From the NCBI GenBank assembly GCA_943355005.1, contig CALRDV010000001.1:242059-306058 (forward strand): a DNA stretch of 64,000 bases, written 5' to 3'. Positions 21,197 through 39,406 of the stretch are shown here, one piece after another. The notes beneath the pieces are model-generated. The model ran no database searches. It had not been told where the DNA came from and worked only from the letters and a program-made list of their open reading frames with translations. Position numbers and translations under genes: made by a program. Every line of letters starts with the position of its first letter. The stretch's first letter is position 1. The DNA comes from Patescibacteria group bacterium. Lineage in GTDB: Bacteria > Patescibacteriota > Microgenomatia > UBA1400 > MFAQ01.

Positions 21197-24100
21197 TTAT
21201 TTTGCTTCGCTAATTTTGAATCCTTCTTTAACAAAGTGGTAGTTATCAGCCACTGAGTTAGATTTTGCCAAGACTCCTGAAATGATCACGTCATTCCCGA
21301 AGAATCCGGAAATAGTGTCGCCTTCTTTGGTGAAAAGCTTTTCCTTCATCATCAATTGGGCTTCATCGTAGCCGATATACACTGGTGTGTATTTCTTGCC
21401 ACCAATATAGACAGTATTAAATCCATCGCTTGGGAGTTTACTAGCTAACTCCTTGGAGGAGGTGCCGTTGATCATATAAAACTGCTTTTCCATGCCTTCC
21501 GCAGTTTTGGCTAGGACTACGTTTTTATCGACCTGTACTTGACCGGTCTTTTCCTTATTTTCCATATTTGTAGGTGCGGCCATAGTAGAGCTGAACCTGG
21601 CAAACTCGATAAACAAGAAAGTGAACGCTATCATCATGACAGCTGGTGCAAACATTGAGATATAGTTCTTCTTTCCTGGCTTGTAACGGCGCAAGAGTAG
21701 TGAATTCCCTACAACTGACACAGAACTTAAAGCCATGGCAAGGCCTGCAAGCTCTGGCTTTAATACCAATCCGACGAACGAGAATATGCGTGCGGCAATT
21801 GGAATTCCGATGACGTTATAGAAGAGCGCAAAGAACATGTTTTGCTGTATCTTCTGTACGGTCGTTTTGGAAAGTTCCAATGCGTGCACAACATCCCGGA
21901 GATCATTTTTGATAATCACGATGCCACCAGTTTCCATGGCCACATCCGTGCCAGATCCCATGGCAATACCCAAATCAGCTTGAGCAAGTGCGGGTGCATC
22001 ATTAATACCATCTCCAACCATTGCTACTTTCTTACCAGCATCTTGAAGTTTTTTGACTTCATTAGCTTTGTCCTGAGGCAATACCTCTGCCAGAATGTTT
22101 GTTATGCCAACCTGAGAGGCAATGGCTTTGGCAGTTTTTGTATTGTCACCAGTAATCATCCAGACCTCGATACCCATTTTGGTAAGCATTTCAACGGCTT
22201 CTCGAGAAGTCTCCTTGACGGTATCGGCTACTCCAATGAATCCAAGAACTCCCTTTTTGGTCGCCAGAATCATGGCAGTTTTACCTTGTTCTTCCAGACG
22301 AGTGAGCTTTCGGTCGAATTTGGCTATGTCTAAGCCCAACGTATCAGTAATGAGCTTACGGTTGCCAAAGAAATACTCAACTTTTCCAATCGTTCCTTTT
22401 ACACCATGCCCTGGAATGGCTGAGAATTTATCCACTTCTTTGAGAACAACCCCTTCTTCCTGTGCATAAGAATATATGGCTTCAGCTAGTGGATGTTCAG
22501 ATTGCTTTTCGAGACTAGCCGAAATCATGAGCACTTCTTCCTCGTCAAGTTCCCCTAAGTCCTCTACATCCGTCACTTCGGGCTTGCCCTTGGTGATCGT
22601 GCCTGTTTTATCAAAAACAATAGTATTGATCTTGCTGGCACTCTCAAGAGGCTCTCCACCTTTGATGAGGATCCCATGCTCAGCACCAACCCCAGTACCT
22701 ACCATAATGGCCGTAGGGGTAGCTAGACCAAGCGCACACGGGCAAGCAATAACAATCACGGCAGTGAATGCCATAAGGGCAAATGAGAGTGGTGCCCCCA
22801 AGAAGAAGTACCAGACCACAAATGTGAGCGCAGCTATCGCGATAACGCCTGGTACAAAGTATGCAGAAATACGATCTGCTACTGCCTGAATAGGTGCTTT
22901 AGACCCCTGCGCATCCTCAACGAGGCGAATGATCTGGGATAAAGTGGTTTCCGATCCAATACGGGTTGCCATAAACTCGAAGCTACCTACTTTATTAATA
23001 GTTCCGCCGATAACCATATCATCAACATGTTTTTCAACCGGCATACTTTCTCCCGTGATCATTGATTCATCGACTGAGGAGGAACCTTTCATAATTACGC
23101 CGTCTACTGGAACCTTTTCTCCGGGACGAACCACAATAATGTCATTTTTCACAACCTGATCAGTTGGGATATCTAGAGTTTCACCATTTCGTATTACTCT
23201 GGCAGTTTTTGCCTGAAGTCCCATGAGTTTTTTAATTGCCTCACCAGTTCTTCCTTTTGCTTTTGCCTCGAGATATTTACCCAAGATGACAAAGGTGATT
23301 AAGAACGCTGCTGTTTCAAAATATAGCTCTGGAATCTTCGCTCCAGCCAATCCAATAAGAGAATTGGTGGTCGCGTAGTACTGAATAAAATTGACAGCAC
23401 TGTAAAAATACGCCACTGATGTACCTATGGCTATCAGGCTATCCATGTTAAAGGTACGCATCTTTAGAGCTGAAATCATACCTTTATAGAAGCTCGAGCC
23501 GGTAATAAATTGAACCGGAGTAGCTAAAATAAACGACACTATGCCTATATAAGGAAGAAGTGTTTTACCACCAGGCAAGAAACTAAAGAAATCAAGGAAC
23601 ATGAAATATATCATTGGGAAAGATAAGATCAGGGCAAACAAGAACTTTTTCCATTGCCCTTTGATTTCTGATAATTGACGCTTGGCTTGAGCTTGTGAAT
23701 CTTCTGAGCTGGCTAGCATTCCCTTATATCCAGCTTTTTCCACTGCTTTTATTAGATCATCAGTTTTTGCTGATCCAGTGTTATAGAGAATCGAAGCTTT
23801 TTCTGAGGCAAAATTAACTTTTGCTTCTGCAACTCCCGGAACTTTCTTTAATTGACGTTCGATAATAGATGCACACGATGAGCAGTGCATGCCTGAAATA
23901 ACTAGGCTAGTCCGTTCTGTTTTACCTGTTAGGGCAACTTGTGATACAACGCCTTCAGATGTTATGGATTGTCCAGATTCTGTTCTTTGTGCTGATCCGA
24001 AACGCAAGATTCCTTTAATTGTCCAGTGTCCATCCTCGTCTTGGCCTACTTTACCGTCAATTTCAATTTCTGGAGGAAGTGTAAATAATGGCGTTGCTTG

Positions 24101-24340
24101 CTGTGCAAGGTTCATGCCTGTTTTTCCCACGATGAGACTCTGATACCCGGCACTTTTTACCGCGTCTATAATCGCCTGATCGGTTACCTGGCCATTGGTA
24201 GTGATAATTGTTGCTTTTCCAGCTTTGTGATCGACACTCACATCTTTGATCCCCGGAAGGGAAATAAGTTCGTCTTTAATCAGCATTTCGCATGATTGGC
24301 AGTGCATTCCTTTAATATCTAAGTTGATTGTTCTTTTCAT
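21197..24340 (-). CDS. copA: Cu(I)-translocating P1B-1 ATPase CopA with two N-terminal HMA domains, plus an extra C-terminal TM helix and a C-terminal domain of about 150 aa
   Basis: GMHCQSCE and [25 protein letters not shown] and [10 protein letters not shown]. After the canonical last TM there is another hydrophobic helix ([23 protein letters not shown]) and then a Met-containing soluble domain. Confidence 0.9.
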
Positions 24341-24352
24341 ATGTTTTTTGTT

Positions 24353-24556
24353 TTAAATGGTTTTATATGGTGTATCTTTCAATACGTTATTAATTTCTTG
24401 GGCAGAAATTTCTCGATTTGCCTCGATTGCTACCAGTCCGGTTTCAATCGTAGTTTCAACATTTGTAACGCCATCCAGCCCTCCTATTCTTTTTTCAGTA
24501 ATTTTTTTACAGGCTGGGCAGGTAAGGCCTGATAATTTAATGGTTTGTTTTTTCAT
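24353..24556 (-). CDS. copZ: Copper chaperone CopZ (HMA domain)
   Basis: GLTCPACKKITE; 67 aa. Confidence 0.8.
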   Translation of the reverse strand: MKKQTIKLSGLTCPACKKITEKRIGGLDGVTNVETTIETGLVAIEANREISAQEINNVLKDTPYKTI

Positions 24557-24567
24557 AATTTCCTCCT

Positions 24568-26382
24568 TTAAATAACTTGTATTTGACCTCTTTGCATCCC
24601 CATACCACAGGTAATGTTGTATGTTCCTTTACTCGTTGGGGTAAATTCAAAGACTACTTTTTCTCCTTTGGTTAATATTTCAATCTTTTGAGTGAGCGTG
24701 GGTACCGTAATGCTTCCCATGCACCCCTGACCATCTTCCTTGGCATCAATTTCAAATCGTACAGGTTGGTTTGCCTTGACGGTAAAGGTGTTTGGCTGGA
24801 TGTCACTGCTTGCGGTGTATGTCGTTTTGATAAGTTGGACATTTCCTTGGTTGACCGTTTCGCCCGCAGGTAAATTGTTATTTTGTGCAATAACCTGCTT
24901 TTTGGCACCGCAACCACACCCTCCGCCACTAGCACTGCACGAACCCGCCGCCTGTGTATTTTGTGTTTGTGTCGTACTGGCTATTTGGGTGGTAGATGGG
25001 GCACTGCCAGTTTCATCAACTACTGTGAACGATCCGGTATACATCCCCATGAGACATGAGAAACGAATGGTGCCTGTTTCTTTGGGAGTGAACTCAAAGA
25101 CATTTTCTCCGAGCTCTAAGCTTTTACGAATACCAAGCTGTTGGGAAACAATGCTGCTGGCACAGGAATAGATATCCTTTGATGTTACTATCCATTTAAC
25201 GGGAATACCTTTTTTAATCGTGAATTTATTCGGTGAATAGCCAGATGATGCTTGAGTCATACGGACAACTTGCACCCCATTTACCATAGTGACATTTGGA
25301 TCAGACTTTGCAGTCGCCTTTGAAGTAACTGCACCAAGTACCTGTGGAACACCCAGGAGATTTAATCCATTTCCGACATTAAAAAATGCAAGCATAATGA
25401 CGACCACTCCAGCTGTTTTGAAGAATAATCTCGCGCCATTTCCCTTGACGACTGATGTTAATCCGCCAACTCCCAAGAGACCAGGTGCTGTACCGAGGGC
25501 AAACACACCCATCGTTAAAGCTCCTTGTATGGGACTACCAGTACTCATAGCAAAGAGTTGCATTGCTTGGGTAAAGCCACAGGGGAGAAAGAAAGTAGTA
25601 GCTCCCATGATAGCTGCGTTTTTATTGCTATATTCAAGTTGCGTTTTCTCAGCAATACCAAGCATCCTGGATAATCCCTTGGGAAGAGTAAAGGATACTT
25701 TTTTCAAGATAGGAAAGATGTCGATTAACTGGCCTCCAAGAAGAAGCATAACTAATCCAACGGCTACCGTTAATAAACCAAGAACTGACGTGGATAATTG
25801 AAAGAATGATCCGGCTAACCCGATAACGCCACCAAGAATGGTATATGAAATGATTCTTCCAAGATTGAAAAACAAATGCGGCTTGAACTTTTCCATACCT
25901 GTTGCATTGGGGAATTGCTCAGAAAACCGAGATGAGGCACCAAGAACTAAGCCTCCAACGAGCGCCATACACGTAGAGACGCCAGCAGTTAAACCGACCA
26001 AGAAAACAATGGGAAGGCTAGAGTAACTACCTGAGATCGACTTACTTAGATCGAAAAGTCCGACGGATTTTGCAATTAGAAATAATGCAGTGGTGATAAA
26101 GAAAGCTATACCGACATCAATGTAGTCTCTGTGATTGCGGGAAAAGAAATGAATTTTGCCGTCTTCGCCAATCGTATAACCAGCTTTTTCAATAGCTTGC
26201 TTAACTTCGTTACCATCTAACTCACAGTCGCAGTTCACATCAGCAATTCCTGTTTTATGATTCACATAAACAGACTGGACGCCACGAACTTTTTTAAGTT
26301 CATCTTCAATTAATATCTCGCATGATCGGCAATGCATTCCTTTGATTTGGATTTTTTGTTTGCTCATTGTTAGAGCATACAA
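24568..26382 (-). CDS. Fusion protein: N-terminal HMA domain, DsbD_2/TauE-like polytopic membrane domain, and two C-terminal cupredoxin-like beta-sandwich repeats (C...C-x-MGM motif)
   Basis: GMHCRSCE; a multi-TM core with an intramembrane PCG motif; two about 75-aa repeats ending in FSCLMGMYTG and ITCGMGMQRG. The probable start is the ATG at 26367. Confidence 0.6.
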   Translation of the reverse strand: MYALTMSKQKIQIKGMHCRSCEILIEDELKKVRGVQSVYVNHKTGIADVNCDCELDGNEVKQAIEKAGYTIGEDGKIHFFSRNHRDYIDVGIAFFITTALFLIAKSVGLFDLSKSISGSYSSLPIVFLVGLTAGVSTCMALVGGLVLGASSRFSEQFPNATGMEKFKPHLFFNLGRIISYTILGGVIGLAGSFFQLSTSVLGLLTVAVGLVMLLLGGQLIDIFPILKKVSFTLPKGLSRMLGIAEKTQLEYSNKNAAIMGATTFFLPCGFTQAMQLFAMSTGSPIQGALTMGVFALGTAPGLLGVGGLTSVVKGNGARLFFKTAGVVVIMLAFFNVGNGLNLLGVPQVLGAVTSKATAKSDPNVTMVNGVQVVRMTQASSGYSPNKFTIKKGIPVKWIVTSKDIYSCASSIVSQQLGIRKSLELGENVFEFTPKETGTIRFSCLMGMYTGSFTVVDETGSAPSTTQIASTTQTQNTQAAGSCSASGGGCGCGAKKQVIAQNNNLPAGETVNQGNVQLIKTTYTASSDIQPNTFTVKANQPVRFEIDAKEDGQGCMGSITVPTLTQKIEILTKGEKVVFEFTPTSKGTYNITCGMGMQRGQIQVI

Positions 26383-26390
26383 GAGCCGGT

Positions 26391-26410
26391 ATTAAGATTT
26401 TATGAAGATT
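26391..26410. promoter_or_regulatory. Island motif copy 1: ATTAAGATTTTATGAAGATT, upstream of the HMA-DsbD_2 fusion/copZ/copA operon
   Basis: Exact 20-mer shared with copy 5, 8-23 nt from the start codon. Confidence 0.6.
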
Positions 26411-26431
26411 TGTGAGGAAGATTTAAAACTT

Positions 26432-28675
26432 TCAGACAGTTATCAAGTCTTTTTCAGCTCGTTTCAGGAGTACTGCGTTTGTAGCCACGATAATTGAAGA
26501 AATACTCATAAGAAGCGCGGAAAATTCTGGGCGTAAAGTGATACCATAGCGTGGATAGAGTACCCCAGCAGCGATTGGGATTGCCAAGATATTGTAAATA
26601 CTTGCCCAGACTAGGTTTTCCTTCATTTTTCTGACTGTGGCTTTAGAAAGTCGGATTGCTCGTAATATATCGGCAGGATCTGATTTCATGAGGACCACCT
26701 TGGCCGTTTCTATGGCTACATCGGTTCCTGCACCAATTGCAATCCCAATATCGGCCTGAGCCAAAGCTGGGGCATCATTTACCCCGTCGCCAACCATGGC
26801 AGTAAATTTACCCTCTGATTGGAGTTTCTTTACATACGAGGCTTTGTCTTCCGGTAATACTTCAGCAAAAATTCTATCTATACCCAGTTCTTTCCCAATC
26901 GCTTCAGCAGTTTTTTTATTGTCTCCGGTAATCATGGCAACTTCGAGTCCCATTTCCTTCATGCGGGTAACAGCTATTTTGGCGTTTGCCTTAATTGGAT
27001 CAGAGGCAGCGGCGACACCTGCGATTTTTTTATCTACTGCAAGTATCATGATCGTTTTTCCTTCTGAGAGCAGGCGGTCAATATCAGTTTGTAAGGTTGT
27101 CGTGTCTACTTTCCAGTCATTCATGAGCCTTGTTGTACCAACAAGCACATGTTTGCCATTTACTATAGCCTCAACGCCATGACCGGCAAGGTTATTGAAT
27201 TTTTCTACCTTTGATGGAACAACAATCTTTCTTCGCTTCGCTTCCTCAAGGATAGCCATGCTTAATGGGTGAGAAGATTTGGCCTCAGCAGCACTGTCCA
27301 GCTCAATTATTTGATCCTCTGTGAAGCCTTTGGCTGCCACTACGTCGGTTATGCGAGGCTTTCCTTCGGTGAGTGTGCCGGTTTTATCCAGTACTACCGA
27401 TTGTATCTTTGATACCTGTTCAAGAGTTGGTGCATCTTTGATGAGAATGTTATGTTTCGCACCAAGTCCCGTACCTACAGCTACCGCAGTTGGGGTGGCC
27501 AACCCAAGCGCATCTGGGCAAGCAATGACGACGGTCGAGATTGCAAAAGTAAGTGCTAATAGGAGAGGTTGCCCAAGTACAAAAAACCAGACGGTAAAAG
27601 TCAAGAGTCCACCACCAACAGCCACAATTACTAAATACTTTGCAAACTGATCAGCAATTTTTTGTCCGGGGGCTTTGGAGTTTTGAGCGGTTTCTACCAT
27701 CTTCACAATTTGGGCGAGCGCTGTATCTTCTCCAACCTTAGTCGCCTTAAACTTTACAGAACCCGAGGTGTTAATTGATCCGCCAATGACAGAATCTCCA
27801 ATCGACTTGGAAACAGGTAGCGATTCGCCTGTGACGAGCGATTCGTCGATGGCAGTCTCTCCCTCGATAATCTCACCATCAACAGGCACTTTATCACCAG
27901 GTTTTAAGATCAATATGTCACCAAGCACAATACTCGCTGTTGGAACCATTGATTCCACTCCATTTTTCCATAATCTGGCTTGCGGGGGAACAAGGTTAAA
28001 TAAGGCCTGAAGTGCATCGGTGGTGCCACGACGTGACTTCATTTCCATCCAATGGCCAAAGAGGACGAAAGTGATAAGCATCGCAGCAGCTTCATAATAT
28101 GAGTCACTACTTCCAAGGAGCGTTAAAACAACACTAAATCCGTAGGCAGCCGTAATACCCACAGCGATAAGAACCGACATGCCGAGGCGAAGCGTCTTGA
28201 GCTCAAAATAGGATGAATATAAGAATAACCAACCGCTATAGAAGAATACTGGCGTGGTAAGAATAAAAAGTAACCAAGGAATAGGTAGCGGGGATGGTAA
28301 ATTCCAGCCAAACATCGTTCGACCCATTGAATAAGCAAGAATTGGGATCGTAAGAAGTAGTGCGAAGAAGAATTTGTTTCTGATATCTTCTTCCATCAGT
28401 TTCGCCATTTCTCGTCCGGCGAGTCCCGTATGATCCATACCCATGGTCATAGTCATACTCATTTTGAGTTTTTCCCAAATGGACATCTCGGACGTTAGTT
28501 TCATCGTATGAGCTTTATGTTCCGAATGACCCATCTCTTCATGGTTCATTTCAACAGGAACGAGCGTCATGCCACACTTGGGACACTTCCCTGGCTTTTC
28601 TTTCCTGATTTCTGGATGCATCGTGCAGGTATACATGGTCATTTCCATAGGTTTCATACTTACTTCATTATGCAT
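26432..28675 (-). CDS. P1B-type Cu/Ag ATPase with an N-terminal HMBD (C-x-MHPE...GKCPKCGM) and a Met-rich segment. It has an unusual CPD transmembrane motif.
   Basis: [44 protein letters not shown] (verified in DNA), DKTGTLT and GDGVNDAPAL. Confidence 0.85.
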   Translation of the reverse strand: MHNEVSMKPMEMTMYTCTMHPEIRKEKPGKCPKCGMTLVPVEMNHEEMGHSEHKAHTMKLTSEMSIWEKLKMSMTMTMGMDHTGLAGREMAKLMEEDIRNKFFFALLLTIPILAYSMGRTMFGWNLPSPLPIPWLLFILTTPVFFYSGWLFLYSSYFELKTLRLGMSVLIAVGITAAYGFSVVLTLLGSSDSYYEAAAMLITFVLFGHWMEMKSRRGTTDALQALFNLVPPQARLWKNGVESMVPTASIVLGDILILKPGDKVPVDGEIIEGETAIDESLVTGESLPVSKSIGDSVIGGSINTSGSVKFKATKVGEDTALAQIVKMVETAQNSKAPGQKIADQFAKYLVIVAVGGGLLTFTVWFFVLGQPLLLALTFAISTVVIACPDALGLATPTAVAVGTGLGAKHNILIKDAPTLEQVSKIQSVVLDKTGTLTEGKPRITDVVAAKGFTEDQIIELDSAAEAKSSHPLSMAILEEAKRRKIVVPSKVEKFNNLAGHGVEAIVNGKHVLVGTTRLMNDWKVDTTTLQTDIDRLLSEGKTIMILAVDKKIAGVAAASDPIKANAKIAVTRMKEMGLEVAMITGDNKKTAEAIGKELGIDRIFAEVLPEDKASYVKKLQSEGKFTAMVGDGVNDAPALAQADIGIAIGAGTDVAIETAKVVLMKSDPADILRAIRLSKATVRKMKENLVWASIYNILAIPIAAGVLYPRYGITLRPEFSALLMSISSIIVATNAVLLKRAEKDLITV

Positions 28676-28684
28676 GCATTTGTT

Positions 28685-29209
28685 TTATTGCACAAACTTA
28701 CAATGTCCACGAATTTTTTGTTCAAATTTCTGAGGGTCAGCGAGGTTTGAAAGCAGGATTTGATCGAGATAATCGCCAGGAGCACTTATTTCTATGACAA
28801 TATCTCCGAAATTAAAGATTTTCCCCAATATACCCTGATTAATTGTAATTGAGCGAATATTGTCTAGATCAAATGTCTTTTCAATCACACTCATAATGCC
28901 ATCTCGTTTGACAAGGTGGGCGTCGTCGATAAAGTAAGAGCTACCGATCCATTTCATAACAAATTTCAACACAAATATGACCTGAAAGATGCTCTTTCCA
29001 ATATGAAGCATCGCTAAGATAAAGATGATATATCTATGGGTATCAAAAGGTAAAACTCCTTGCAAAAAATACACTTTCATCAAAAAGAAGTTAATTATGC
29101 TGTAGATAAGGTCGGTAAAAACAAGCAGACTGACGAGCTGTATGGCTAACGTTGCTACACTCGCCCTAATTGGTTCCCTGTTTGACATAGTGTTTGTTTC
29201 TTGATTCAT
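28685..29209 (-). CDS. Membrane-flanked bacterial PH-domain protein (YdbS/bPH_2-like)
   Basis: Two TM segments followed by a bPH_2-like C-terminal domain. Confidence 0.4.
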   Translation of the reverse strand: MNQETNTMSNREPIRASVATLAIQLVSLLVFTDLIYSIINFFLMKVYFLQGVLPFDTHRYIIFILAMLHIGKSIFQVIFVLKFVMKWIGSSYFIDDAHLVKRDGIMSVIEKTFDLDNIRSITINQGILGKIFNFGDIVIEISAPGDYLDQILLSNLADPQKFEQKIRGHCKFVQ

Positions 29210-29220
29210 AAGTTACCTAA

Positions 29221-29901
29221 TTAGATATTCGCAGAGGCAGGTTTGATTATTAATCTCTGTAGTACCTGCTGGGGCGATGGGATAAATGCAGATGTACGTT
29301 TTAAGTATCGTGTATAGGAAATGCCAAACTGCTTGTACATCTCCAGTTCTTCAGTCTTTGCAAGGCGGAAGTATCTCCATATAAGAACCGGCGCCATGAG
29401 TAACGTGATAAGTGTCGGCCACTGCACAAGAAATCCAAGGATGATGAGGATGAAAGCTAAATACTGAGGGTGTCGAATATATGTATAAATTCCGGACGTT
29501 GCTAGTTTTTGTCTTTTTTGAGCTTTGTACAATATCTCCCACGCATTAGCCAGGAGAGAGAATCCGCCAATAATAAGGGCATAACTGATGATATGAAGGA
29601 TGCTAAAGTGTGGATCACCCTTGATTCCTAAAAGCGTATTGAGGATGTGACCATTATCATGGGTGAAATCTAAACCAAGTTTTTTACCAAAAAATGATGT
29701 TAATAAATATATTGTGAGCGGGAAGCCATACATTTCTGCAAATAAGGCAACGATAAATGCCCCGAAGGTATGATATGTTCGCCAATCTGTTTTTGTTCTT
29801 GGCTTAAACGAACTTTTTAAGAAATAGAGAAATATACCGATATTGAGAAAAACGAGTAACCAGTTTCCATAGTCATACATATATCCGCAGTCTAGCAACA
29901 C
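29221..29901 (-). CDS. Isoprenylcysteine carboxyl methyltransferase (ICMT/PEMT)-family membrane methyltransferase
   Basis: YIRHPQY motif and a multi-TM segment. Confidence 0.6.
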   Translation of the reverse strand: MLLDCGYMYDYGNWLLVFLNIGIFLYFLKSSFKPRTKTDWRTYHTFGAFIVALFAEMYGFPLTIYLLTSFFGKKLGLDFTHDNGHILNTLLGIKGDPHFSILHIISYALIIGGFSLLANAWEILYKAQKRQKLATSGIYTYIRHPQYLAFILIILGFLVQWPTLITLLMAPVLIWRYFRLAKTEELEMYKQFGISYTRYLKRTSAFIPSPQQVLQRLIIKPASANI

Positions 29902-29947
29902 ATGTATGAAGAAATCGTGAGCTTAGGATTAATTCCGGGTGAAGAAA

Positions 29948-30046
29948 TTACTTTCCATTTTCTTCAAGAACTAAATCCATGCCACATTTTGGGCACTTAC
30001 CCGGCTCATCTTCTCTCACTTCCGGATGCATTGAGCAGGTATACAT
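29948..30046 (-). CDS. 32-aa free-standing heavy-metal-binding-domain mini-protein ([32 protein letters not shown])
   Basis: ATG..TAA ORF starting 2 nt after the DUF305 stop. It is about 70% identical to the N-terminal HMBD of the ATPase at 26432-28675. It is below the ORF-track length cutoff. Confidence 0.5.
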
Positions 30047-30048
30047 AT

Positions 30049-30696
30049 TTATTTATTCCAATTGGCAAGCCATGATCTCATCATTTCTATTTCACGAGTT
30101 TGAGCAGTGACAATATCGTCTGCTAGTTTTTTCATTTCAGGACGAGTCGTGCCATCCTTTAACATGCTTGCCATCATCACGGCCATTTGATGGTGTGGAA
30201 TCATGTCTTCAACAAAAGCGCGGTCAAAATCTTGAGCATCTTCTAGTCGTGTTGCGTCTGAGTCGTTGCCCATCATTCCCATATGCATGGAGGACGTGCT
30301 ACCCATCATGCCGTGCTGGTTCATGACTGCTCTGCCTGTAGGTAGGTCTTTCCCAAACCAAGATTTGTACCAAGATTTCATCTGGTCGATTTCTTTGCCT
30401 TGAGAATCAATTATGTTCTCTGCCAGCTGTTTTACTTCCGGAGTCTTAGCCTTTGTTTGAGCGAGCTTAGCCATGGTAATGGCATCCTCGTGATGAGGGA
30501 TCATTTGCTCGATAAAGTGGGCGTCAAGCTGGGAAGATTGCGTATTATTTGACTGATTAAAAGAAGAGAATCCCATCATTCGCATCATGCCGTAATTATT
30601 TGACCGGACACCTGAAGATATACTCAACCAGACCAGTACACCGCCGATAATCACACCTACAAATCCATACGTTATGTTATTATTTTTCATGTTCAC
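30049..30696 (-). CDS. DUF305 metal-resistance protein (second paralog)
   Basis: MIPHHEDAI and MIPHHQMAV repeats and an N-terminal anchor. Confidence 0.75.
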
Positions 30697-30767
30697 CCTC
30701 CTTAAGTTTCCAGATATAACAAGTCTTATCCCATCATACTACACGGGAGGAAATATGTTTCAAAGAG

Positions 30768-31157
30768 CTATTTAACAATGAGCGTGCCATTACCCATATT
30801 ATTTGCACAGTGCATCCTAAATTGTCCTGGTTTATCTGCAATAAATTCCAGCACATTACTTTCCGGGGTTATGTCTTTGCTTAATTCATAACCATCAATA
30901 ATAAGTCTACCCATGGATCCGGTGAGTGTGTTTGAATCTGCTTCGATTCTCACTTTTGTACCTAATTTTACCTTGACTGTTTTTGGTGTGTAATCGCCGT
31001 TTTGTAGGCTGGACAGTTTAATAGTTGTTAATTCATCTGTTTGAACAACATTATTTTGAGTATCTGTTTTCAGGTCAACTGGACTTGTCTGTTTCCATAT
31101 AATGAAGCCGGAAATAATTAGTACTACTACGATGATGAGCGGTTTATTTATTTTCAT
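30768..31157 (-). CDS. Secreted or anchored cupredoxin-like single-domain protein (RMHCANNMGNG)
   Basis: A signal anchor and a beta-sandwich homologous to the C-terminal repeats of the protein at 24568-26382. Confidence 0.5.
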   Translation of the reverse strand: MKINKPLIIVVVLIISGFIIWKQTSPVDLKTDTQNNVVQTDELTTIKLSSLQNGDYTPKTVKVKLGTKVRIEADSNTLTGSMGRLIIDGYELSKDITPESNVLEFIADKPGQFRMHCANNMGNGTLIVK

Positions 31158-31181
31158 ATAATTAATTTTACCGATTTAGTT

Positions 31182-31201
31182 ATTAAGAATTTATGAAGAT
31201 A
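31182..31201. promoter_or_regulatory. Island motif copy 2: ATTAAGAATTTATGAAGATA, upstream of the cupredoxin-like gene
   Basis: 18/20 match to the consensus. Confidence 0.55.
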
Positions 31202-31204
31202 GAG

Positions 31205-31432
31205 CTAGTGCTTATGTCCGCCATTTCGCATCATTAATATATGCATGAGTGGGCATGCTAGTATTGCTCCAAAGTACACCACATTTGTTAGTGGTACTGC
31301 GAATACTTTAACTGCTATTAATATCACCACAGCTACTCCTAGGCATATAAGCAGCCATTTTGTCTTTTTTTGAGTATTCTCATTGGTTGAATGATCCATT
31401 TTTGAATGATCCATATCTAACCTCCTTACCAT
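31205..31432 (-). CDS. DUF2933-like small membrane protein (ACPLMHILMMRNGGHKH)
   Basis: One TM segment and the C-terminal CPLMH..MM..GH motif typical of metal-island DUF2933 proteins. Confidence 0.5.
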   Translation of the reverse strand: MVRRLDMDHSKMDHSTNENTQKKTKWLLICLGVAVVILIAVKVFAVPLTNVVYFGAILACPLMHILMMRNGGHKH

Positions 31433-31449
31433 GATTATAGAAAAGACCA

Positions 31450-31469
31450 GATTAAGAAAGTATGAAGAT
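31450..31469. promoter_or_regulatory. Island motif copy 3: ATTAAGAAAGTATGAAGATT, upstream of the DUF2933 gene
   Basis: 17/20 match. Confidence 0.55.
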
Positions 31470-32929
31470 TAGGACTTGGCTTTCAGAGGAAGCGATATGG
31501 TGACGTGTGTTCCCTTACCGACTTTGCTTGCTATTGAAATAGTGCCACCGTGGGACTCTATGATTCCTTGAGCAATTGCGAGTCCAAGACCTGAGCCAAG
31601 TGTTTTAGCAGTTTTTGACCCACGATAGAAACGGTCGAATATATGGGGTAGGTCTTTTTCTAGAATGCCATTGCCTGAATCAATAACTTCAACCACCGCC
31701 TCACTGTTTTTGGTACGCAGAAAAATAGAAATTGTCTCATTCTTCGGCGTATATTTCACTGCGTTATCGAGGATATTAAGAATTGCGCGGGAAAGTTTGT
31801 CTTCTGATCCGGTAACCTGAATGCCTTCGGCAATATGACTTTTGACCGTGATATGTTTTTGAGCGGCTAGTTTGACGGCAATATCTTTCAGTTCCACAAG
31901 TACAGCCGTAAGATCAGTTTGTTGATTCGTACTTATTGCCTTGTCGGCGCCGATCCACGCTAAATCGAGAATGTTTCTGATCGTAGTAGACAATCGATTG
32001 ACATCGATAAGTGTTTCTCCAAACGCATTTTTATATTCCTCATTCGTGCGTTTTTTTGACAACGCTAACTCAATTTCTCCTTTTAACGTAGCTACTGGTG
32101 TTTTCAGTTCATGGGCAACGTCACCGATAAATTGACGTTCTCTTTTAAAAGATTCGTGAAGTCTTTGGAGTAATTCGTTAAACGTTACTGCAAGTTCTGA
32201 CACTTCATCTTCGGTATTGGGAACAGCTACGTGTCGATTCAAATCTTGGCTAGTAATTGATTGGAGGTCTGAAGATATCTTCTGAATCGGTTGTAAGGCG
32301 CTTTTTGCCAGTAAATAGCTCCCGATTATTGCAGGGATTGCGATAAGGAGATAAACCGCGGTCAGAGTCAAAATCAGGCTTTTGAAGGAGTCGTAGATTG
32401 CATCAACCGGATCACCCATAAAAATAAGACCGTTCGATTCACCATTTTGTATTATGGGGAATACGCCAATCCGGAGTGTTGTTGTGCCAATACGGCGTTC
32501 TACAAAGGTAGGTTTTATGATATTACTGGACTTTTCAATAAGGTCTTTAAGTATAGTATTTTCGTCCGCTCCGACTTGAGAACTGCCCGTAATTTTCCCG
32601 GATTTGTCGGTAATAAGGACGAGCATTCCCGGCATTTCCATAAATTGCTGACTAATAATTCCTTGGTTAAAAACTCCTTGAGCCATGCTCGGCTGTTCAT
32701 CTCCCACCATCTTCGTTAGCGTTTCTGCATGGGCAATGATCGAACGGTCTGTTTGGTTAAGAAGTGTCTGCTTGGTGATGTAGAAAAATACGGCAAAAAC
32801 AATAGCTGTACTGACAAAGAAAGCAATTGAATACCAAAGTGTTAGACGAAATCGGATTGATTTTTTATTCATGTTATCCAATCTTATACCCCACGCCGTG
32901 AACGGTCTGGATAAGCTTAACCTTTGCAC
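31469..32929 (-). CDS. Sensor histidine kinase (two TM segments, periplasmic domain, HAMP, HisKA, HATPase_c). The likely start is at 32872.
   Basis: H-box VAHELKTP and G1/G2 boxes (DSGNGI, GSGLGLAIA). Confidence 0.85.
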   Translation of the reverse strand: MQRLSLSRPFTAWGIRLDNMNKKSIRFRLTLWYSIAFFVSTAIVFAVFFYITKQTLLNQTDRSIIAHAETLTKMVGDEQPSMAQGVFNQGIISQQFMEMPGMLVLITDKSGKITGSSQVGADENTILKDLIEKSSNIIKPTFVERRIGTTTLRIGVFPIIQNGESNGLIFMGDPVDAIYDSFKSLILTLTAVYLLIAIPAIIGSYLLAKSALQPIQKISSDLQSITSQDLNRHVAVPNTEDEVSELAVTFNELLQRLHESFKRERQFIGDVAHELKTPVATLKGEIELALSKKRTNEEYKNAFGETLIDVNRLSTTIRNILDLAWIGADKAISTNQQTDLTAVLVELKDIAVKLAAQKHITVKSHIAEGIQVTGSEDKLSRAILNILDNAVKYTPKNETISIFLRTKNSEAVVEVIDSGNGILEKDLPHIFDRFYRGSKTAKTLGSGLGLAIAQGIIESHGGTISIASKVGKGTHVTISLPLKAKS

Positions 32930-33539
32930 CGGTATCTACTTTTTTCCTGAGAGTGCCGACAAACACATCAACCACGTTACTCATACCATCAAAATTGTAA
33001 TCCCAGACATGCTCGATAATCATCGTACGTGATACGACTTCTCCCTTATGGCGCATAAGGAGCTCAAGAACCGCAAATTCTTTCGGGGTGAGGGTGATAG
33101 CCTTATTCGCTCTTTGCACACTGTGTTTTAGTGGATCGAGAATAAGATCATTTTCAGACAAAATCGGTGATATATCCTGATGACTGCGGCGAATGAGGGC
33201 GTGTACTCGTGAGCGAAACTCAACGAAAGAGAATGGCTTGGTTATATAGTCGTCAGCACCGCTATCAAGTCCGGCGACTTTATCTTCTAATGTAGATTTA
33301 GCGGTGAGCATAAGCACAGGGGTCTTAATACTCTTTTTACGCAGTTCTTTACACACTTGTAGACCGTCAAGTTTGGGAAGCATGATATCGAGCACAATAA
33401 GGTCGTACTGCTCACTTTCGGCCAAATATTGACCTTCTTCACCGTCAAATGCTTGATCAACAGCAAAGCCGTCCTCGATAAAACCCTTTTTGATGATATT
33501 GGAGAGACGACGTTCGTCTTCGACAATTAAGACTCTCAT
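32874..33539 (-). CDS. OmpR-family response regulator (REC domain plus winged helix)
   Basis: MRVLIVEDE...DIMLPKLDG...; C-terminal trans_reg_C domain. Confidence 0.9.
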   Translation of the reverse strand: MRVLIVEDERRLSNIIKKGFIEDGFAVDQAFDGEEGQYLAESEQYDLIVLDIMLPKLDGLQVCKELRKKSIKTPVLMLTAKSTLEDKVAGLDSGADDYITKPFSFVEFRSRVHALIRRSHQDISPILSENDLILDPLKHSVQRANKAITLTPKEFAVLELLMRHKGEVVSRTMIIEHVWDYNFDGMSNVVDVFVGTLRKKVDTGAKVKLIQTVHGVGYKIG

Positions 33540-33550
33540 GAATCTATTAT

Positions 33551-33580
33551 ATTAAAAATTCATGAAGAAATCATTAAGAC
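33551..33580. promoter_or_regulatory. Island motif copy 4: ATTAAAAATTCATGAAGAAA plus a third half-site (TCATTAAGAC), upstream of the response-regulator gene
   Basis: Three AAGA-type half-sites at about 11-bp phasing. Confidence 0.5.
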
Positions 33581-33592
33581 TCGGTTTTAGGT

Positions 33593-33859
33593 CTACTTTT
33601 TTAGAAAGCTGTTATAGCTTGCGGCAAAGAGATAACCAGCAACCCACGCGGACGCGACCGCCGATATTAGCCCCACGATAAAGTTCCCTGTTGATATGCT
33701 CCAAGAGCCAATCGTGAGCCCATGGAACCAGGATTGTGCAATAGACATCATAAGATCAGGAAATAGACCGACCAACAGTCTACATACTACGTAGATAATA
33801 CCGACCGTTGTTGCGGCTGCGTTTGCTGTGGTCATAGGATTATGTTTCATGATGTTCAC
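33593..33859 (-). CDS. Small membrane protein, unknown
   Basis: ORF with two hydrophobic helices. Confidence 0.25.
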   Translation of the reverse strand: MNIMKHNPMTTANAAATTVGIIYVVCRLLVGLFPDLMMSIAQSWFHGLTIGSWSISTGNFIVGLISAVASAWVAGYLFAASYNSFLKK

Positions 33860-34358
33860 CTCCCTCTATACGAATAAAATATTTTTGCGTTCCGTAGAGC
33901 ATTTGTTGGACACACCATTTGGCATACCATCCGCTTAACAGCTTGCCAAGCCAGACGAAAGATTTTGGCAATTCATAGTCAATGGATACGGTAAGCTTAG
34001 AGCCCGAGCCATCAGGTTCAATTTCTACTTTCATCTGATACTGACCGATGATGAGAAGCTTTGGAGTGCCGACTGTTTTCCAAACCTTACGGTGTGGTGG
34101 AACATGCTCAGTTACCACTTCGTCCAGCGATATATAGATTCCAAACACTTTGCCGTCCATTTTGATATGAGATCCTACAGCCTTCCCTTTAAGCTCATCA
34201 ACATAGGTGTTCATTTTGCCGCCACCCATCATTGGACTTGCGGTATTCATGTGGGAGGAAAATTTATTATGGTCGTCGATATAATCAAATACTTCAGAAG
34301 GGGCAGCTAAAATCTTTGCGCTTTCACTATATGTGCGAACCTTCGATTGTGATGTCAT
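33840..34358 (-). CDS. SRPBCC-like hypothetical protein
   Basis: Weak fold-level resemblance. Confidence 0.35.
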   Translation of the reverse strand: MTSQSKVRTYSESAKILAAPSEVFDYIDDHNKFSSHMNTASPMMGGGKMNTYVDELKGKAVGSHIKMDGKVFGIYISLDEVVTEHVPPHRKVWKTVGTPKLLIIGQYQMKVEIEPDGSGSKLTVSIDYELPKSFVWLGKLLSGWYAKWCVQQMLYGTQKYFIRIEGGEHHET

Positions 34359-34361
34359 AGG

Positions 34362-34664
34362 TTAGGACTTATCTAGTTCTTTAATCATAATATCAGGAAT
34401 TTCCCCAATAGTGGATGTTGATAGTCGGTAATACATATTTTTCCCATCCCGTCTTGACGTTACTATGCCTACATTTTTTAATACCATGAGATGTTGTGAA
34501 ATATTTGATTGTCGATACTTCATGAAACTAACGAGCTCGTGCACATTTAATTCTTGCTTTCTCAGTAGCGACACTATGTTAAGACGCTTAGCATTAGCAA
34601 AGGCCTTAAAGATTTGCAATTCCTTTGTAAACATTACTGAAGTCATATGACTTAGACTCCACAT
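34362..34664 (-). CDS. ArsR/SmtB-family transcriptional regulator with no Cys residues
   Basis: A winged HTH typical of ArsR. There is no canonical Cys metal site. Confidence 0.7.
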   Translation of the reverse strand: MWSLSHMTSVMFTKELQIFKAFANAKRLNIVSLLRKQELNVHELVSFMKYRQSNISQHLMVLKNVGIVTSRRDGKNMYYRLSTSTIGEIPDIMIKELDKS

Positions 34665-35626
34665 CCACCACCTTGTTTAGGTGGTTGTTGTATAAGGCCT
34701 TTATCAGCTAACCATTGCTTGGCACTTTGCCAACCGGAAGCAGAAGAATAGTCTTTGCTTAATAAGGTTTTCGCATCAATATCTTTGAATGACTTACCCT
34801 CTTTGTTCTGAAAGTAGAGCGCCAAATCGTAATAATTGCCAGGGAACCAGAATGCATTCACATATTTAGCAGCTTCATACATTTCTTTTTCGGTTGCGCC
34901 ATTACTGGCCATGAGTTGCAGTACTCCTAAAAGTGCCATCCCGTGATTGCAGTCTGGAAATGCGGTCGAATTATTACAGCACGGTCTATAGATGTTTGAG
35001 GCCACCTGCTCAACTAATGCTTCCTGTTCTTTTGTAAGCGGAATGAGGGTAGATTTAGAGTAATAGTTCATGGCATTTCCCTTTGAGAGACTCCAACCAC
35101 CGGTTGAAGCAAAGTTGCCGGCACCCTCTTTGCCACCATATTTGATCATTTCTCCTTCATCTAAAATCTTAGATTTGTTAGCCAGCCCTACCGCCCAGAA
35201 GTAATTAAGGAGAAAATATGAATTCTCTCGAGTAATGGATATTGTCTCATCTGAACCTTTTGAGAGTATCAGCTCTTGCTCTGGAGTGAGTGGTTGATTG
35301 GACTTTTCATAAGTGTTTTTAAACTTGTCCGGATCGATAACTCCCATTGCAATCATTTTCGGACCGAGCTGGCCATAACTAGCATTAATTTTGAAGCCTG
35401 AAACAGGATTTACTTCGTCAAATACGTTGTCTTTATTTGCAGTCGATACTTGTGTTGTAGTTGATTTACTCACTGACTTAAACCCATTTGCTCTCCATAT
35501 TGATAACTTTGGGGCAAGTAAGACGGCTGCAAGAACAGTATTGGCTACGACACTGACGAGAAGGATTGGGAATAATTTATTTTTCACCTTGGCCTCCTTT
35601 GTAGCGCAGCAGTTTATAAAAGGCAT
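34652..35626 (-). CDS. Secreted Cys-containing protein of unknown function
   Basis: A signal anchor, CC/CN..C motifs and a C-terminal GGGCGV. Confidence 0.3.
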   Translation of the reverse strand: MPFINCCATKEAKVKNKLFPILLVSVVANTVLAAVLLAPKLSIWRANGFKSVSKSTTTQVSTANKDNVFDEVNPVSGFKINASYGQLGPKMIAMGVIDPDKFKNTYEKSNQPLTPEQELILSKGSDETISITRENSYFLLNYFWAVGLANKSKILDEGEMIKYGGKEGAGNFASTGGWSLSKGNAMNYYSKSTLIPLTKEQEALVEQVASNIYRPCCNNSTAFPDCNHGMALLGVLQLMASNGATEKEMYEAAKYVNAFWFPGNYYDLALYFQNKEGKSFKDIDAKTLLSKDYSSASGWQSAKQWLADKGLIQQPPKQGGGCGV

Positions 35627-36404
35627 ACAGGACTATTCCAAACACTGCCAGGTCAACCAGTGGGTTTTGGAAATATTTGGCGATCTCAAAAACAATCATT
35701 CGGATTTTTATGCTGTAGGGCTCCATCTGATTCATTTGAATCTTGCCAAGGTAATTAAAAATAGCAATCAGTATGCCTGTCAGGAAAAAGATTCCGGCTC
35801 CCAGATTTTTTAGTACCGTGTAGATTTTCTGCCTATTGGCCCCCGTGACTTTTCCAGTAGCTTTCTCATAGCACATCGACATGATAAAGAGGGGCATCAC
35901 GATACCAACGACATAGGCAAGAGATACTATTAATGCCTGGAATAGCGAAGGTGAAAGCGACGTTAACGTTACTGCGGCAAAAAGGACAGGCGCACAGCAG
36001 GCTGAGGTAAGGCCAGACATAAGGCCTAATCCAAACACACTTGCTGTATTTACTTTCTTGCCCTGTAATCCAGAGACGTGGAAAAACTGTGGCAAGTGAA
36101 AGACGGGTTTTAAGGTCATAACACCCATGAGTATCATGATGAGGGCTCCTAGATAGTAGATGGGTGTGTGATATGCATCTAAGAAAAATATAGCTGAACG
36201 AATGCCTAGCGCGATGGGAACGAGCACGAATGCGAGACCAAGCGCAAAGATAAGCGTGTAGTACATGATCCGTCCTCGTTCTTTAAAGATTGTGCCTAGA
36301 TATGAGGGCAGTAGGAACGTAATACAGCATGGGGCAAATAATGCCAAAACTCCCGCGAGGAACGAGGCCGTTAACGAGATGCCGAAGAGAAAGTTTGTAT
36401 CCAT
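35577..36404 (-). CDS. CcdA/DsbD-family membrane protein with paired Cys (PCC, ACCAP)
   Basis: Six to eight TM segments with Cys pairs in TM1 and TM4. Confidence 0.5.
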   Translation of the reverse strand: MDTNFLFGISLTASFLAGVLALFAPCCITFLLPSYLGTIFKERGRIMYYTLIFALGLAFVLVPIALGIRSAIFFLDAYHTPIYYLGALIMILMGVMTLKPVFHLPQFFHVSGLQGKKVNTASVFGLGLMSGLTSACCAPVLFAAVTLTSLSPSLFQALIVSLAYVVGIVMPLFIMSMCYEKATGKVTGANRQKIYTVLKNLGAGIFFLTGILIAIFNYLGKIQMNQMEPYSIKIRMIVFEIAKYFQNPLVDLAVFGIVLYAFYKLLRYKGGQGEK

Positions 36405-36406
36405 AG

Positions 36407-36904
36407 TTATTTGACCTTTGCCGTAATGCTAAATATCAATTTCGAGTTTGCAGGATCATTGGTCTCTACATATACTTCGCGTTCAACTAGCCCGTACACC
36501 GGCATTGAGGCTGGCCTGTAGGTTAGACGAATGGTGGCGGTATCACCTGGGGCAATTTCGGTGACAAACCCGCTCTGGGTATGCATGCTGTACTCTTTAC
36601 TGGTTTTACCTTGGTAGATAATCTGTCCGGCAGTACAGCCGCAACTTGAATTAACATTCAGGATTTGTAGTGGCTTGGTACCAGCGTTCTTAACTGTGTA
36701 GTCTTCAACTTTAACATCAGACACTTTTATCTCACCAAGATTTCTTGAAGTATTACTCGTTTCAGCCTTAGGGCGATCGGTGTCTTGCGTTGCAAATGAA
36801 GCTGTTGCAGGAGTAGGTGTCTGACCGGCAGTCAAAAGAAAAGCAATTCCAACAACCGAGGCTATAAAGACGAGCATCCAGATAATTAACGTTTTTGGTG
36901 ACAT
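36407..36904 (-). CDS. DUF1573 domain protein (CGCT motif)
   Basis: A TM anchor and SSCGCTAGQI, typical of DUF1573. Confidence 0.6.
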   Translation of the reverse strand: MSPKTLIIWMLVFIASVVGIAFLLTAGQTPTPATASFATQDTDRPKAETSNTSRNLGEIKVSDVKVEDYTVKNAGTKPLQILNVNSSCGCTAGQIIYQGKTSKEYSMHTQSGFVTEIAPGDTATIRLTYRPASMPVYGLVEREVYVETNDPANSKLIFSITAKVK

Positions 36905-36905
36905 A

Positions 36906-37199
36906 TTAGTTTATATAATTAAATGTTTTTATAAATTCAGTAATATTTTGTTGCGATTCGTCTGGTTTATGTTGTTTCTTTAATCTATTTGCTATGCAAA
37001 CCACAAGGTGATGAATGGCTAATCGGCGGTTCACATACCTCAATTGCGTCATGGCAACTACTAATTGCGTGTGTGCTAATTCCCAATCAATTCCGGCTTC
37101 CATTTGATCAATTAATTTACTGACAATATCCTTTACCAAACGTAATCTTCGGATCAATTCCTGCTTATCTAGGTCTTGAGACTTGATATTCATAGTCAA
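36906..37199 (-). CDS. Hypothetical small protein
   Basis: ORF. It is the first gene of an operon preceded by motif copy 5. Confidence 0.3.
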   Translation of the reverse strand: MTMNIKSQDLDKQELIRRLRLVKDIVSKLIDQMEAGIDWELAHTQLVVAMTQLRYVNRRLAIHHLVVCIANRLKKQHKPDESQQNITEFIKTFNYIN

Positions 37200-37216
37200 A
37201 TCGTACTCCTGCCGAT

Positions 37217-37236
37217 ATTAAGATTTTATGAAGATT
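37217..37236. promoter_or_regulatory. Island motif copy 5: ATTAAGATTTTATGAAGATT, upstream of the DUF1573/CcdA/ArsR operon
   Basis: Exact 20-mer identical to copy 1. Confidence 0.6.
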
Positions 37237-37252
37237 ACTAAGGCAGTTAAGA

Positions 37253-37736: not shown

Positions 37737-37746
37737 ATATTGGATC

Positions 37747-37772
37747 CACCGCGGGGCCCCAACCCCGCGGAT
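37747..37772. terminator. GC-rich hairpin CCGCGGGG-CCCCAA-CCCCGCGG
   Basis: A perfect 8-bp stem. It is intergenic if the downstream gene starts at 37797. Confidence 0.3.
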
Positions 37773-37796
37773 GGGTATTCAAGAAAGGAAAAATAT

Positions 37797-37995: not shown

Positions 37996-38018
37996 CTTAA
38001 AAGGTCTATAATAAAGGC

Positions 38019-39287: not shown

Positions 39288-39406
39288 GGTTGTTAGATAG
39301 TATTAATTATTCCATTCTCTTCCTTATATATAAGGAATATAGATGTAGGGATTTTGATTGTATTTAGCCTTAAGATATCGCATTTTCAGTGTAAACACGC
39401 TTACAC

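Follow-up and report, generated by a model that had tools for sequence, protein, structure and literature searches.

A recurrent 20-mer in a Patescibacteria metal island as the probable operator of the island's own two-component system

Why do the same 20 nucleotides stand in front of several separate transcription units of a single bacterial metal island? The island lies on a 64,000-nt stretch of contig CALRDV010000001.1 from a Patescibacteria group bacterium (assembly GCA_943355005.1, positions 242,059 to 306,058 of the forward strand); we refer to the whole of this stretch as the window and count all coordinates by it. An exact 20-mer, ATTAAGATTTTATGAAGATT when read on the forward strand, is found at 26391-26410 and 37217-37236, and in gene orientation, that is on the minus strand, it reads AATCTTCATAAAATCTTAAT. 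We consider it probable that the repeated element is the operator of the island's own CopR/CusR-like response regulator, which would activate five to six units including its own gene. The fixed geometry of the sites, their conservation, their co-occurrence with the regulator, and the match to the CopR box of Corynebacterium glutamicum, with the precedent that it sets, support a regulon of the island two-component system, as an earlier note on this DNA had proposed. Binding by this particular regulator, activation rather than repression, the transcription starts and copper as the signal are what we infer from the sequence, and it is the gene content alone that points to copper.

In the mechanism that we envisage, a metal, most likely copper, would activate the kinase, and the phosphorylated regulator would bind the two units of a box head-to-tail. 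The bound regulator would take the place of a missing -35 contact and recruit sigma-70 RNA polymerase, as PhoB does at pho boxes, and five to six units would be switched on together, with two P1B ATPases, CopZ, cupredoxins, DUF305, the ICMT unit and the DUF1573 unit among their products. The regulator/kinase pair would itself belong to the activated units, which would amount to positive autoregulation.

The repeat and its six sites

The predicted regulon, the two-component system and the boxes are listed below. Bit scores come from a position weight matrix (PWM) built from the motif sites, the promoter elements are predicted, and handles beginning with L denote the loci used for comparison.

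21197..37193, minus strand: predicted regulon of six co-oriented transcription units, with a box at the 5' end of each.
32874..33539, minus strand: OmpR-family response regulator of 221 aa, with receiver Asp51 and a winged-helix Trans_reg_C domain; the proposed binder of the boxes.
31469..32872, minus strand: sensor histidine kinase (transmembrane segment, sensor, transmembrane segment, HAMP, HisKA, HATPase), whose start codon lies 1 nt past the regulator stop.
26391..26410, minus strand: box S1, AATCTTCATAAAATCTTAAT, 28.3 bits, with orthologous sites in L083, L087, L122, L132, L139, L175 and L197; then an 11-nt spacer, -10 TATGCT (26379-26374), 6 nt and ATG 26367, the start of the HMA-DsbD_2-cupredoxin / CopZ / CopA operon.
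31182..31201, minus strand: box S2, TATCTTCATAAATTCTTAAT, 27.8 bits, with an ortholog in L162; then an 11-nt spacer, -10 TAAAAT (31170-31165), 7 nt and ATG 31157, the start of the cupredoxin / DUF305 / HMBD mini-ORF (open reading frame) unit.
31451..31470, minus strand: box S3, AATCTTCATACTTTCTTAAT, 27.3 bits, overlapping the kinase stop codon, with orthologs in L162 and L197; then an 11-nt spacer, -10 TATAAT (31439-31434), a leader of about 13 nt with AAGGAGG (31427-31421) and ATG 31414, the start of a small DUF2933-like gene.
33551..33581, minus strand: site S4, three phased half-sites, 28.0 + 20.3 bits, before the response regulator gene; then a 10-nt spacer, -10 TATAAT (33551-33546), 6 nt and ATG 33539.
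37217..37236, minus strand: box S5, AATCTTCATAAAATCTTAAT, 28.3 bits, with orthologs in L081-L088, L170 and L207; then an 11-nt spacer, -10 TACGAT (37205-37200), 6 nt and ATG 37193, the start of the unit CsoR-like / DUF1573 / two unknown proteins / ArsR / SRPBCC / DUF5676.
29906..29925, minus strand: weak box S6, TAAGCTCACGATTTCTTCAT, below 10 bits in the PWM scan, before the ICMT gene; then an 11-nt spacer, -10 TAGACT (29894-29889), 8 nt and ATG 29880, the start of the ICMT / bPH / HMBD-ATPase operon.

Each copy consists of two 11-bp units, in which a conserved 7-mer, TCTTMAT, is joined to a variable 4-mer; in gene orientation the site takes the form AATCTTCAT-AAAA-TCTTAAT. The 4-nt linker occurs as AAAA, AAAT, ACTT, GATT, CGCT or ACTA, and the columns of linker and spacer hold almost no information content. 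The repeat is direct, keeps an exact 11-bp phase at all sites and has a variable linker, as is characteristic of tandem-repeat operators, and its earlier description as a direct repeat at one helical turn, of the OmpR/PhoB type, holds.

The recurrence of the element is far beyond chance. The exact pair at 26391 and 37217 stood up to a mismatch search with shuffled controls: in the 64-kb window, four matches to the 20-mer with up to three mismatches were found against 0.04 expected, and none of 100 shuffles reached four. The other two of these lie at 31182-31201 (2 mismatches), where the earlier note had also seen a variant, and at 31451-31470 (3 mismatches), one position away from the 31450 it had given. 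The core pattern TCTTMAT-N4-TCTTMAT, sought on the minus strand, recovers the variant noted at 33551 as two overlapping registers before the regulator gene (33551-33568 and 33562-33579), and an independent repeat search of the window returns a five-copy family. In the PWM scan, whose coverage of the source genome is the 64-kb window, five sites score 27-28 bits and an overlapping one 20 bits. All strong sites share one orientation, as had been claimed: they lie on the minus strand, inside the island at 26.4-37.2 kb, directly 5' of genes. The density check that the earlier note had suggested thus places strong sites in the window only upstream of island genes, the next best match scoring 12.4 bits. 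Across 1.28 Mb of unrelated regulator loci the top score was 18.4, with no matches at promoters.

The degenerate copy previously placed at about 29915 corresponds to S6. Its proximal half-site, TCTTCAT (29906-29912), is intact and its promoter is conserved in relatives, but the distal half-site is poor. The same form, AGCTCAC-gatt-TCTTMAT, occurs in L082 and L086, and full-strength equivalents stand in L081, L085 and L183. Read by eye, the sequence 5' of the ICMT gene (29906-29947) holds four units in 11-bp phase, TCTTCAC, AATTAAT, AGCTCAC and TCTTCAT, with minus-strand starts at 29945, 29934, 29923 and 29912. Of these the first and last match well and the middle two poorly, and together they could form an extended low-affinity site. 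The promoters of S1 and S5 (26364-26420 and 37190-37246) are 75% identical over 57 nt; the likeness goes past the 20-mer to take in spacer, -10 and first codon, and it may have arisen by promoter duplication.

Promoter geometry, the regulator and conservation in relatives

How does the motif relate to the promoters it precedes? At 20 of 20 sites from the window and seven related loci of the candidate phyla radiation (CPR), a hexamer of the form TAnnnT follows it, at a distance of 11 nt (13 sites), 10 nt (6) or 9 nt (1). These sites cover seven non-homologous promoter classes and were not selected for a -10; composition alone would yield such a hexamer by chance at about 8% per site. Metagenome sites were left out of this count because the search pattern that found them itself demanded TAnnnT. 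A generic sigma-70 scan returned no -35/-10 pairs at the predicted promoters. The 20-mer thus ends 9-11 nt before a predicted -10 that has no -35, which is the class II position for predicted starts, and the absence of a -35 fits activator-dependent promoters. With transcription predicted to start at or near the A of the start codon, the motif would span about -43 to -24, and the boxes look like pho-box-style activator-dependent promoters that give rise mostly to leaderless mRNAs.

For five of the six promoters the predicted start of transcription coincides with the ATG or lies at most a few nt from it; the sixth has a 13-nt leader with a Shine-Dalgarno sequence. From the end of the motif to the likely start codon the distance is 23 nt for ATG 26367, 24 nt for ATG 31157 and 23 nt for ATG 37193; for ATG 31414 it is 36 nt, with 18 nt to an in-frame ATG further upstream, and ATG 33539 lies 22 nt away in the conserved register, or 11 nt in the register of the earlier note. 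The range of 8-24 nt given before is therefore roughly right, but it mixes mechanical ORF starts with likely real ones. Of 35 sites with an alignment from residue 1 on, 27 have the start codon 22-25 nt past the motif. Outside the island, many genes at the head of an operon in the window (starts 5343, 9354, 12835, 15943, 38019, 48679, 48702 and 53371) show a TATAAT-like hexamer 6-8 nt from the ATG but no Shine-Dalgarno sequence. This CPR genome thus seems to make leaderless mRNAs often, and since the leaderless spacing is frequent at other operons of the window, the predicted starts fit the host. A search of the published literature found nothing on leaderless mRNAs in Patescibacteria.

The proposed binder of the boxes has Response_reg and Trans_reg_C domains and an intact receiver (E7, D8, D51, T79 and K101). 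The cognate kinase has an H-box and is translationally coupled to the regulator. Their best NCBIfam matches are a heavy-metal response regulator (TIGR01387, 260.4 bits against a cut-off of 279.2) and a heavy-metal sensor kinase (TIGR01386, 241.1 bits against a cut-off of 292.55). Among named proteins, the regulator is closest to heavy metal response regulators of the proteobacterial type (50-53% identity; 52% for one from Burkholderia); to Corynebacterium CopR (WP_003859491.1, Cg3285) it is 42% identical over its full length. In the recognition helix, small residues (GT, VA, AS, GN) stand where the Burkholderia protein has RR.

Site S4, in front of the regulator gene, comprises the half-sites TCTTAAT (33579-33573), TCTTCAT (33568-33562) and TTTTAAT (33557-33551). 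The pair conserved in relatives is TCTTAAT-gatt-TCTTCAT, which corresponds to 33562-33581 of the window and lies 10 nt from the TATAAT; the third half-site is less conserved and overlaps this -10. Pair and geometry are kept at position 9959 of L081, L083, L085 and L086, and also in L162 and L170, and before the more distant regulators of L098, L138 and L115 there is an ordinary two-unit site at 11 nt. A conserved site precedes the regulator gene in at least 10 loci, which supports autoregulation as a conserved feature, predicted as it is from the sites. The autoregulation proposed earlier for this copy is thereby strengthened, in the register 33562-33581 and not 33551-33570.

The regulator is 79-100% identical to proteins of many Microgenomates (CPR/Patescibacteria) assemblies, among them Shapiro-, Woese-, Roizman- and Collierbacteria, a distribution that suggests a recent horizontal spread of the island among Microgenomates. 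Eight related loci (L081-L088), two of them near duplicates and hence counted as seven, were fetched through regulator homologs (79-92% identical) and carry syntenic or reshuffled versions of the island. Strong PWM sites occur in all seven, each oriented with its downstream gene, and precede the CsoR-like/DUF1573 operon (in seven loci) and the regulator, ICMT, HMA-DsbD_2-cupredoxin and second kinase genes. Motif and geometry are thus kept before the same gene classes, but spacers and linkers diverge. Weaker phased versions of S3 are present in L081, L082, L083, L085 and L086. The pattern used to scan metagenomes (motif plus TAnnnT) was loose, about three quarters of the 120 stretches retrieved being AT-rich chance matches, and only sites with island-type genes downstream were used. 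These precede regulators (65-74% identity) and DUF1573, HMA-DsbD_2, ICMT, cupredoxin and DUF2933-like genes, and bring the number of unique sites to 46. Of the contigs retrieved by the motif alone, those of sufficient length usually encode the regulator and kinase; genes for ArsR, a CsoR-like protein and BlaI are often missing from these contigs.

Among the matches listed in a contig scan with the regulator, the relatives were at most 51% identical and none held the motif core. A relaxed search for ATCTTCA pairs in the loci of these regulators of up to 51% identity and in Nonomuraea yielded scattered chance matches only. The same loci show different repeats, ATCCTCA-N4-ATCCTCA before a Streptomyces regulator and CTGAGAC repeats in Nonomuraea. 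With its core missing from the listed loci of wider relatives, the motif is not general to the wider regulator family. In a Saccharibacteria assembly whose regulator is 50% identical (L003, 6568-6611), a different direct repeat, ATGTTCAtggtATGTTCA, stands 12 nt before a TATAAT that lies 6 nt from an ATG, with a divergent partner repeat at 6568-6584; the layout is again class II and leaderless, with a half-site of its own and in a further CPR lineage.

Known operators and rival explanations

Does any known operator resemble the box? For the CopR box of C. glutamicum, TGAAGATTTgaTGAAGATTT, proof came from mutagenesis and from electrophoretic mobility shift assay with CopR in phosphorylated form (Schelder et al. 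2011, PMC3140484). CopR is an activator there (PMC3140484), and Corynebacterium has one box per locus and per genome. With its flanks and as the reverse complement, this box reads AATCTTCATcAAATCTTcAa (oligonucleotide table of PMC3140484 and the identical region of a C. marinum plasmid) and is identical to the island's AATCTTCATAAAATCTTAAT at 17 of 20 positions. Written as TGAAGATTT-nn-TGAAGATTT, it is matched by S1 and S5 at 17 of 18 positions over the two 9-mers. Both boxes are direct repeats with an 11-bp period, and in both systems an OmpR-family regulator is encoded beside a sensor kinase and autoregulates, in the island by prediction. The content of the Corynebacterium cop locus (multicopper oxidase, CcdA, TlpA, HMA protein, copper ATPase, DUF305) runs parallel to that of the island, the multicopper oxidase having its counterpart in the island's relatives. 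The hosts differ, a CPR bacterium of about 40% G+C on the one hand and a high-G+C actinobacterium on the other. C. glutamicum has its single box in the divergent copR-cg3286 intergenic region, whereas the boxes of the island stand at co-oriented promoters; the two appear to share an operator code, not a promoter architecture. If a regulator of proteobacterial type does use a box nearly identical to the actinobacterial CopR box, the recognition code would have to be either anciently conserved or convergent.

A class II position of the C. glutamicum box for the divergent hypothetical ORF, which would have resolved the puzzle left by PMC3140484, was considered and rejected, the hexamer 11 nt on being CGACCG, not TAnnnT, in the identical region of the C. 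marinum plasmid. The 45 bp around the box are 100% identical on plasmids of C. marinum (pCmarinum1, L210, 52335-52379) and Rothia terrae, and the actinobacterial cop module is thus plasmid-borne and mobile. The plasmid copR has GATACT 7 nt before its ATG and may be leaderless too.

Pho boxes are said to replace the -35 and to end about 10 bp from the -10, as Makino et al. 1988 and Blanco et al. 2011 reportedly found, and a PhoB-like activation through sigma-70 region 4 is presumed for the island. The PHO box is a direct repeat of two 11-bp units, in each of which 7 bases are conserved and 4 less so (PMC4415409), and the island box has the same 7+4 unit structure. The half-sites differ, CTGTCAT for PhoB and TCTTMAT for the island, as do signal and regulon, and the island transcripts are predicted to be mostly leaderless; the PhoB family scores 202.6 bits on the island regulator against 260.4 for the heavy-metal family. 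The proteobacterial CusR/CopR/AgrR box is an inverted repeat, ATKACA-N4-TGTMAT, and AgrR combines a type II activator position with positive autoregulation (PMC7380067). This is the best-scoring protein family for both island proteins, yet its box is of a different type. ATKACA-N4-TGTMAT is present upstream of the regulator of the Burkholderia relative; in the window it has no copies in the island and one chance-level match at 55280. The CiaR box of Streptococcus pneumoniae, bound by an OmpR-family protein, is TTTAAG-N5-TTTAAG; it has an 11-bp period and lies about 10 bp before the -10. On its opposite strand the island motif reads TTAAG-N6-TGAAG, a likeness that we treat as a lead only: the CiaR box has the opposite orientation to transcription, the half-sites of the island are different and longer, and the regulon is unrelated.

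Several points weigh against the assignment of the boxes to the island regulator. The whole case is argued from sequence, and the scanned part of the source genome is 64 kb. Loci L081-L088 were fetched through the regulator, which partly builds in its co-occurrence with the motif there, and the contigs found by the motif are short. Regulator and kinase both score under the curated NCBIfam cut-offs. The regulator is just 42% identical to Corynebacterium CopR and 52% to the proteobacterial type, which has inverted-repeat boxes, and a match of boxes without close orthology of the regulators could be convergent. Residues of the recognition helix differ within the CPR clade (GT, VA, AS), so that specificity cannot be read from the protein. 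Corynebacterium has a single box, which faces away from copR at 59-78 bp upstream of the gene and shows a TAnnnT at 11 nt on neither flank, whereas the island has five to six boxes, each abutting a -10; with such a difference in placement, the mechanism in Corynebacterium need not be the same. Finally, a site at -43 to -24 could also repress.

Two further island-encoded proteins enter into the alternatives:

34362-34664: ArsR/SmtB protein.
20670-21125: BlaI/CopY-like protein.

Might the response regulator bind the boxes but mainly repress, or act dually, for example at S4? OmpR-family members can repress, depending on site position (PMC7380067), and at S4 the third of the phased half-sites (33557-33551) overlaps the TATAAT, such that the phosphorylated regulator, once abundant, could turn the promoter off; in relatives, too, there is a T-rich third unit similar to TTTAAT. 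We regard this reading as unlikely. The third unit coincides with promoter-constrained sequence (TAATATAAT), which makes its conservation uninformative, the distant regulators of L098, L138 and L115 do with the ordinary two units, the target promoters have weak -10s and no -35, and CopR of C. glutamicum is an activator (PMC3140484). A different binder, namely the ArsR/SmtB, the CsoR-like or the BlaI/CopY-like protein, with metal relieving repression, seems very unlikely to us, even with all three regulators encoded in the island and a site overlapping the -35 region that could mediate repression. Proteins of the ArsR, CsoR and BlaI families are known to bind inverted repeats as symmetric dimers or tetramers. 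The motif, unlike such operators, is a strict direct repeat. ArsR is missing from the motif-bearing loci L083, L087, L088, L089, L115, L122, L138 and L170, the CsoR-like gene from most motif-bearing loci and BlaI from L083 and L087; a separate inverted repeat, TTACTAC-N5-GTAGTAA, adjoins the BlaI-like genes of L082, L086 and L088; and promoters without a -35 fit activation over repression.

The motif could instead be a constitutive promoter core, its internal TAAAAT serving as -10 of transcripts with leaders of about 23 nt, as the earlier note had allowed. At S5, and only there, the generic scan pairs a TTAACT with the internal TAAAAT across a 16-nt spacer (37250-37223), and an AGGAG lies 6 nt before an in-frame TTG at 37199. 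The TAAAAT, however, falls in the variable linker, which reads ACTT at S3, GATT at S4, CGCT in L081 and ACTA in L085; the orthologous promoters of L086, L082 and L087 lack the AGGAG and keep TAnnnT, 6 nt and ATG; and the TAnnnT 9-11 nt downstream at 20 of 20 sites is left unexplained. We therefore hold a promoter core to be highly improbable. Scarcely credible, in our judgment, is a role of the repeats as recombination or mobile-element sites at the cassette boundaries of a mosaic island. As an integrative element the island does encode a serine recombinase, and its gene modules, each beginning with the motif, are shuffled between loci; but the motif is always co-oriented with the downstream gene at an exact spacing to -10 and start codon, it differs from recombinase core sites in being a tandem direct repeat whose linker varies, and it matches a proven transcription-factor box, that of C. 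glutamicum CopR. An Rfam scan of the region gave no families, and a structured RNA was set aside as an explanation of the repeat with no known Rfam family there.

OmpR-family heavy-metal two-component regulons with tandem-repeat operators are known already. If the boxes are operators of the island regulator, what would be new is the CPR host, a layout of several promoters on a mobile element, a promoter design with neither -35 nor leader, and the operator match across phyla; our search of the literature found no described regulon or promoter architecture for the CPR (Patescibacteria). Most CPR bacteria are uncultivated, and the locus offers a concrete, testable circuit with a defined operator, regulator and promoters, for which near-identity to the proven Corynebacterium box makes heterologous tests straightforward. 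It would, if true, be the first CPR cis-regulatory code directly testable in a cultivable host (C. glutamicum or E. coli). The PWM and the spacing rule could be used to annotate copper-responsive genes in CPR metagenomes, reaching DUF1573, DUF5676, DUF2933-like proteins, the ICMT-bPH pair and two families without a Pfam match. The likeness of the two boxes also raises a modest question of evolution, namely how recognition codes come to be common to different phyla.

Mobility of the island and its other genes

The metal island is carried on the backbone of an integrative element (37422-44409), which encodes DUF2958, Replic_Relax (38517-39287), a TraG/TrwB-like ATPase (39407-42316) and a serine recombinase (42625-44409); the same backbone is found in L081 (1-6100) and L085 (1-5900). 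At its 3' end the recombinase ORF overlaps a tRNA-Glu encoded on the minus strand (44290-44364), a possible attachment site. A megablast of the island against a plasmid collection returned no matches. We raise, tentatively and with more doubt than confidence, the idea of a self-contained, self-regulating copper module that spreads among Microgenomates on a serine-recombinase integrative element and couples an actinobacterial-type direct-repeat code, common to its five to six -35-less and mostly leaderless promoters, to a proteobacterial-type regulator. The three-unit site S4 could in that case serve as an activate-then-limit autoregulatory switch.

By Pfam scans, the regulon comprises two P1B-type ATPases, CopZ, an HMA-DsbD_2-cupredoxin, a cupredoxin, DUF305, an HMBD peptide, ICMT and bPH, together with a DUF2933-like protein, the regulator and kinase, DUF1573, ArsR, SRPBCC and DUF5676. 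These scans bear out most of the downstream genes named in the earlier note; the exceptions are CcdA, for which there was no Pfam match, and DUF2933, which stays below threshold (19.5 against a cut-off of 21). The operon it had described as DUF1573/CcdA/ArsR begins not with DUF1573 but with a 95-aa protein (36906-37193) that has a weak CsoR-like Pfam match, 17.7 bits against a cut-off of 22.8.

The inverted repeat TTACTAC-N5-GTAGTAA, which lies at about 18665-18690 in L082, 17690-17715 in L086 and 19135-19160 in L088, looks like a BlaI/CopY-type operator. Its sole copy in the window (19638-19656, 1 mismatch) is situated just downstream of a BlaR1-like gene, at the 5' end of a DsbA-like ORF; a BlaI-type operator was sought upstream of the window's BlaI-like gene and not found there.

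Two proteins of the S5 unit, of 275 and 324 aa (34652-36404), have no Pfam or NCBIfam matches. They always follow DUF1573 under a motif-bearing promoter, are 64-98% identical across loci and are candidates for new copper-related functions. A free-standing ORF of 32 aa (29948-30046) is a complete HMBD metal-binding domain (Pfam E = 6.7e-16), and its DNA is 74% identical to 28549-28644, which encodes the N-terminal HMBD of the downstream ATPase.

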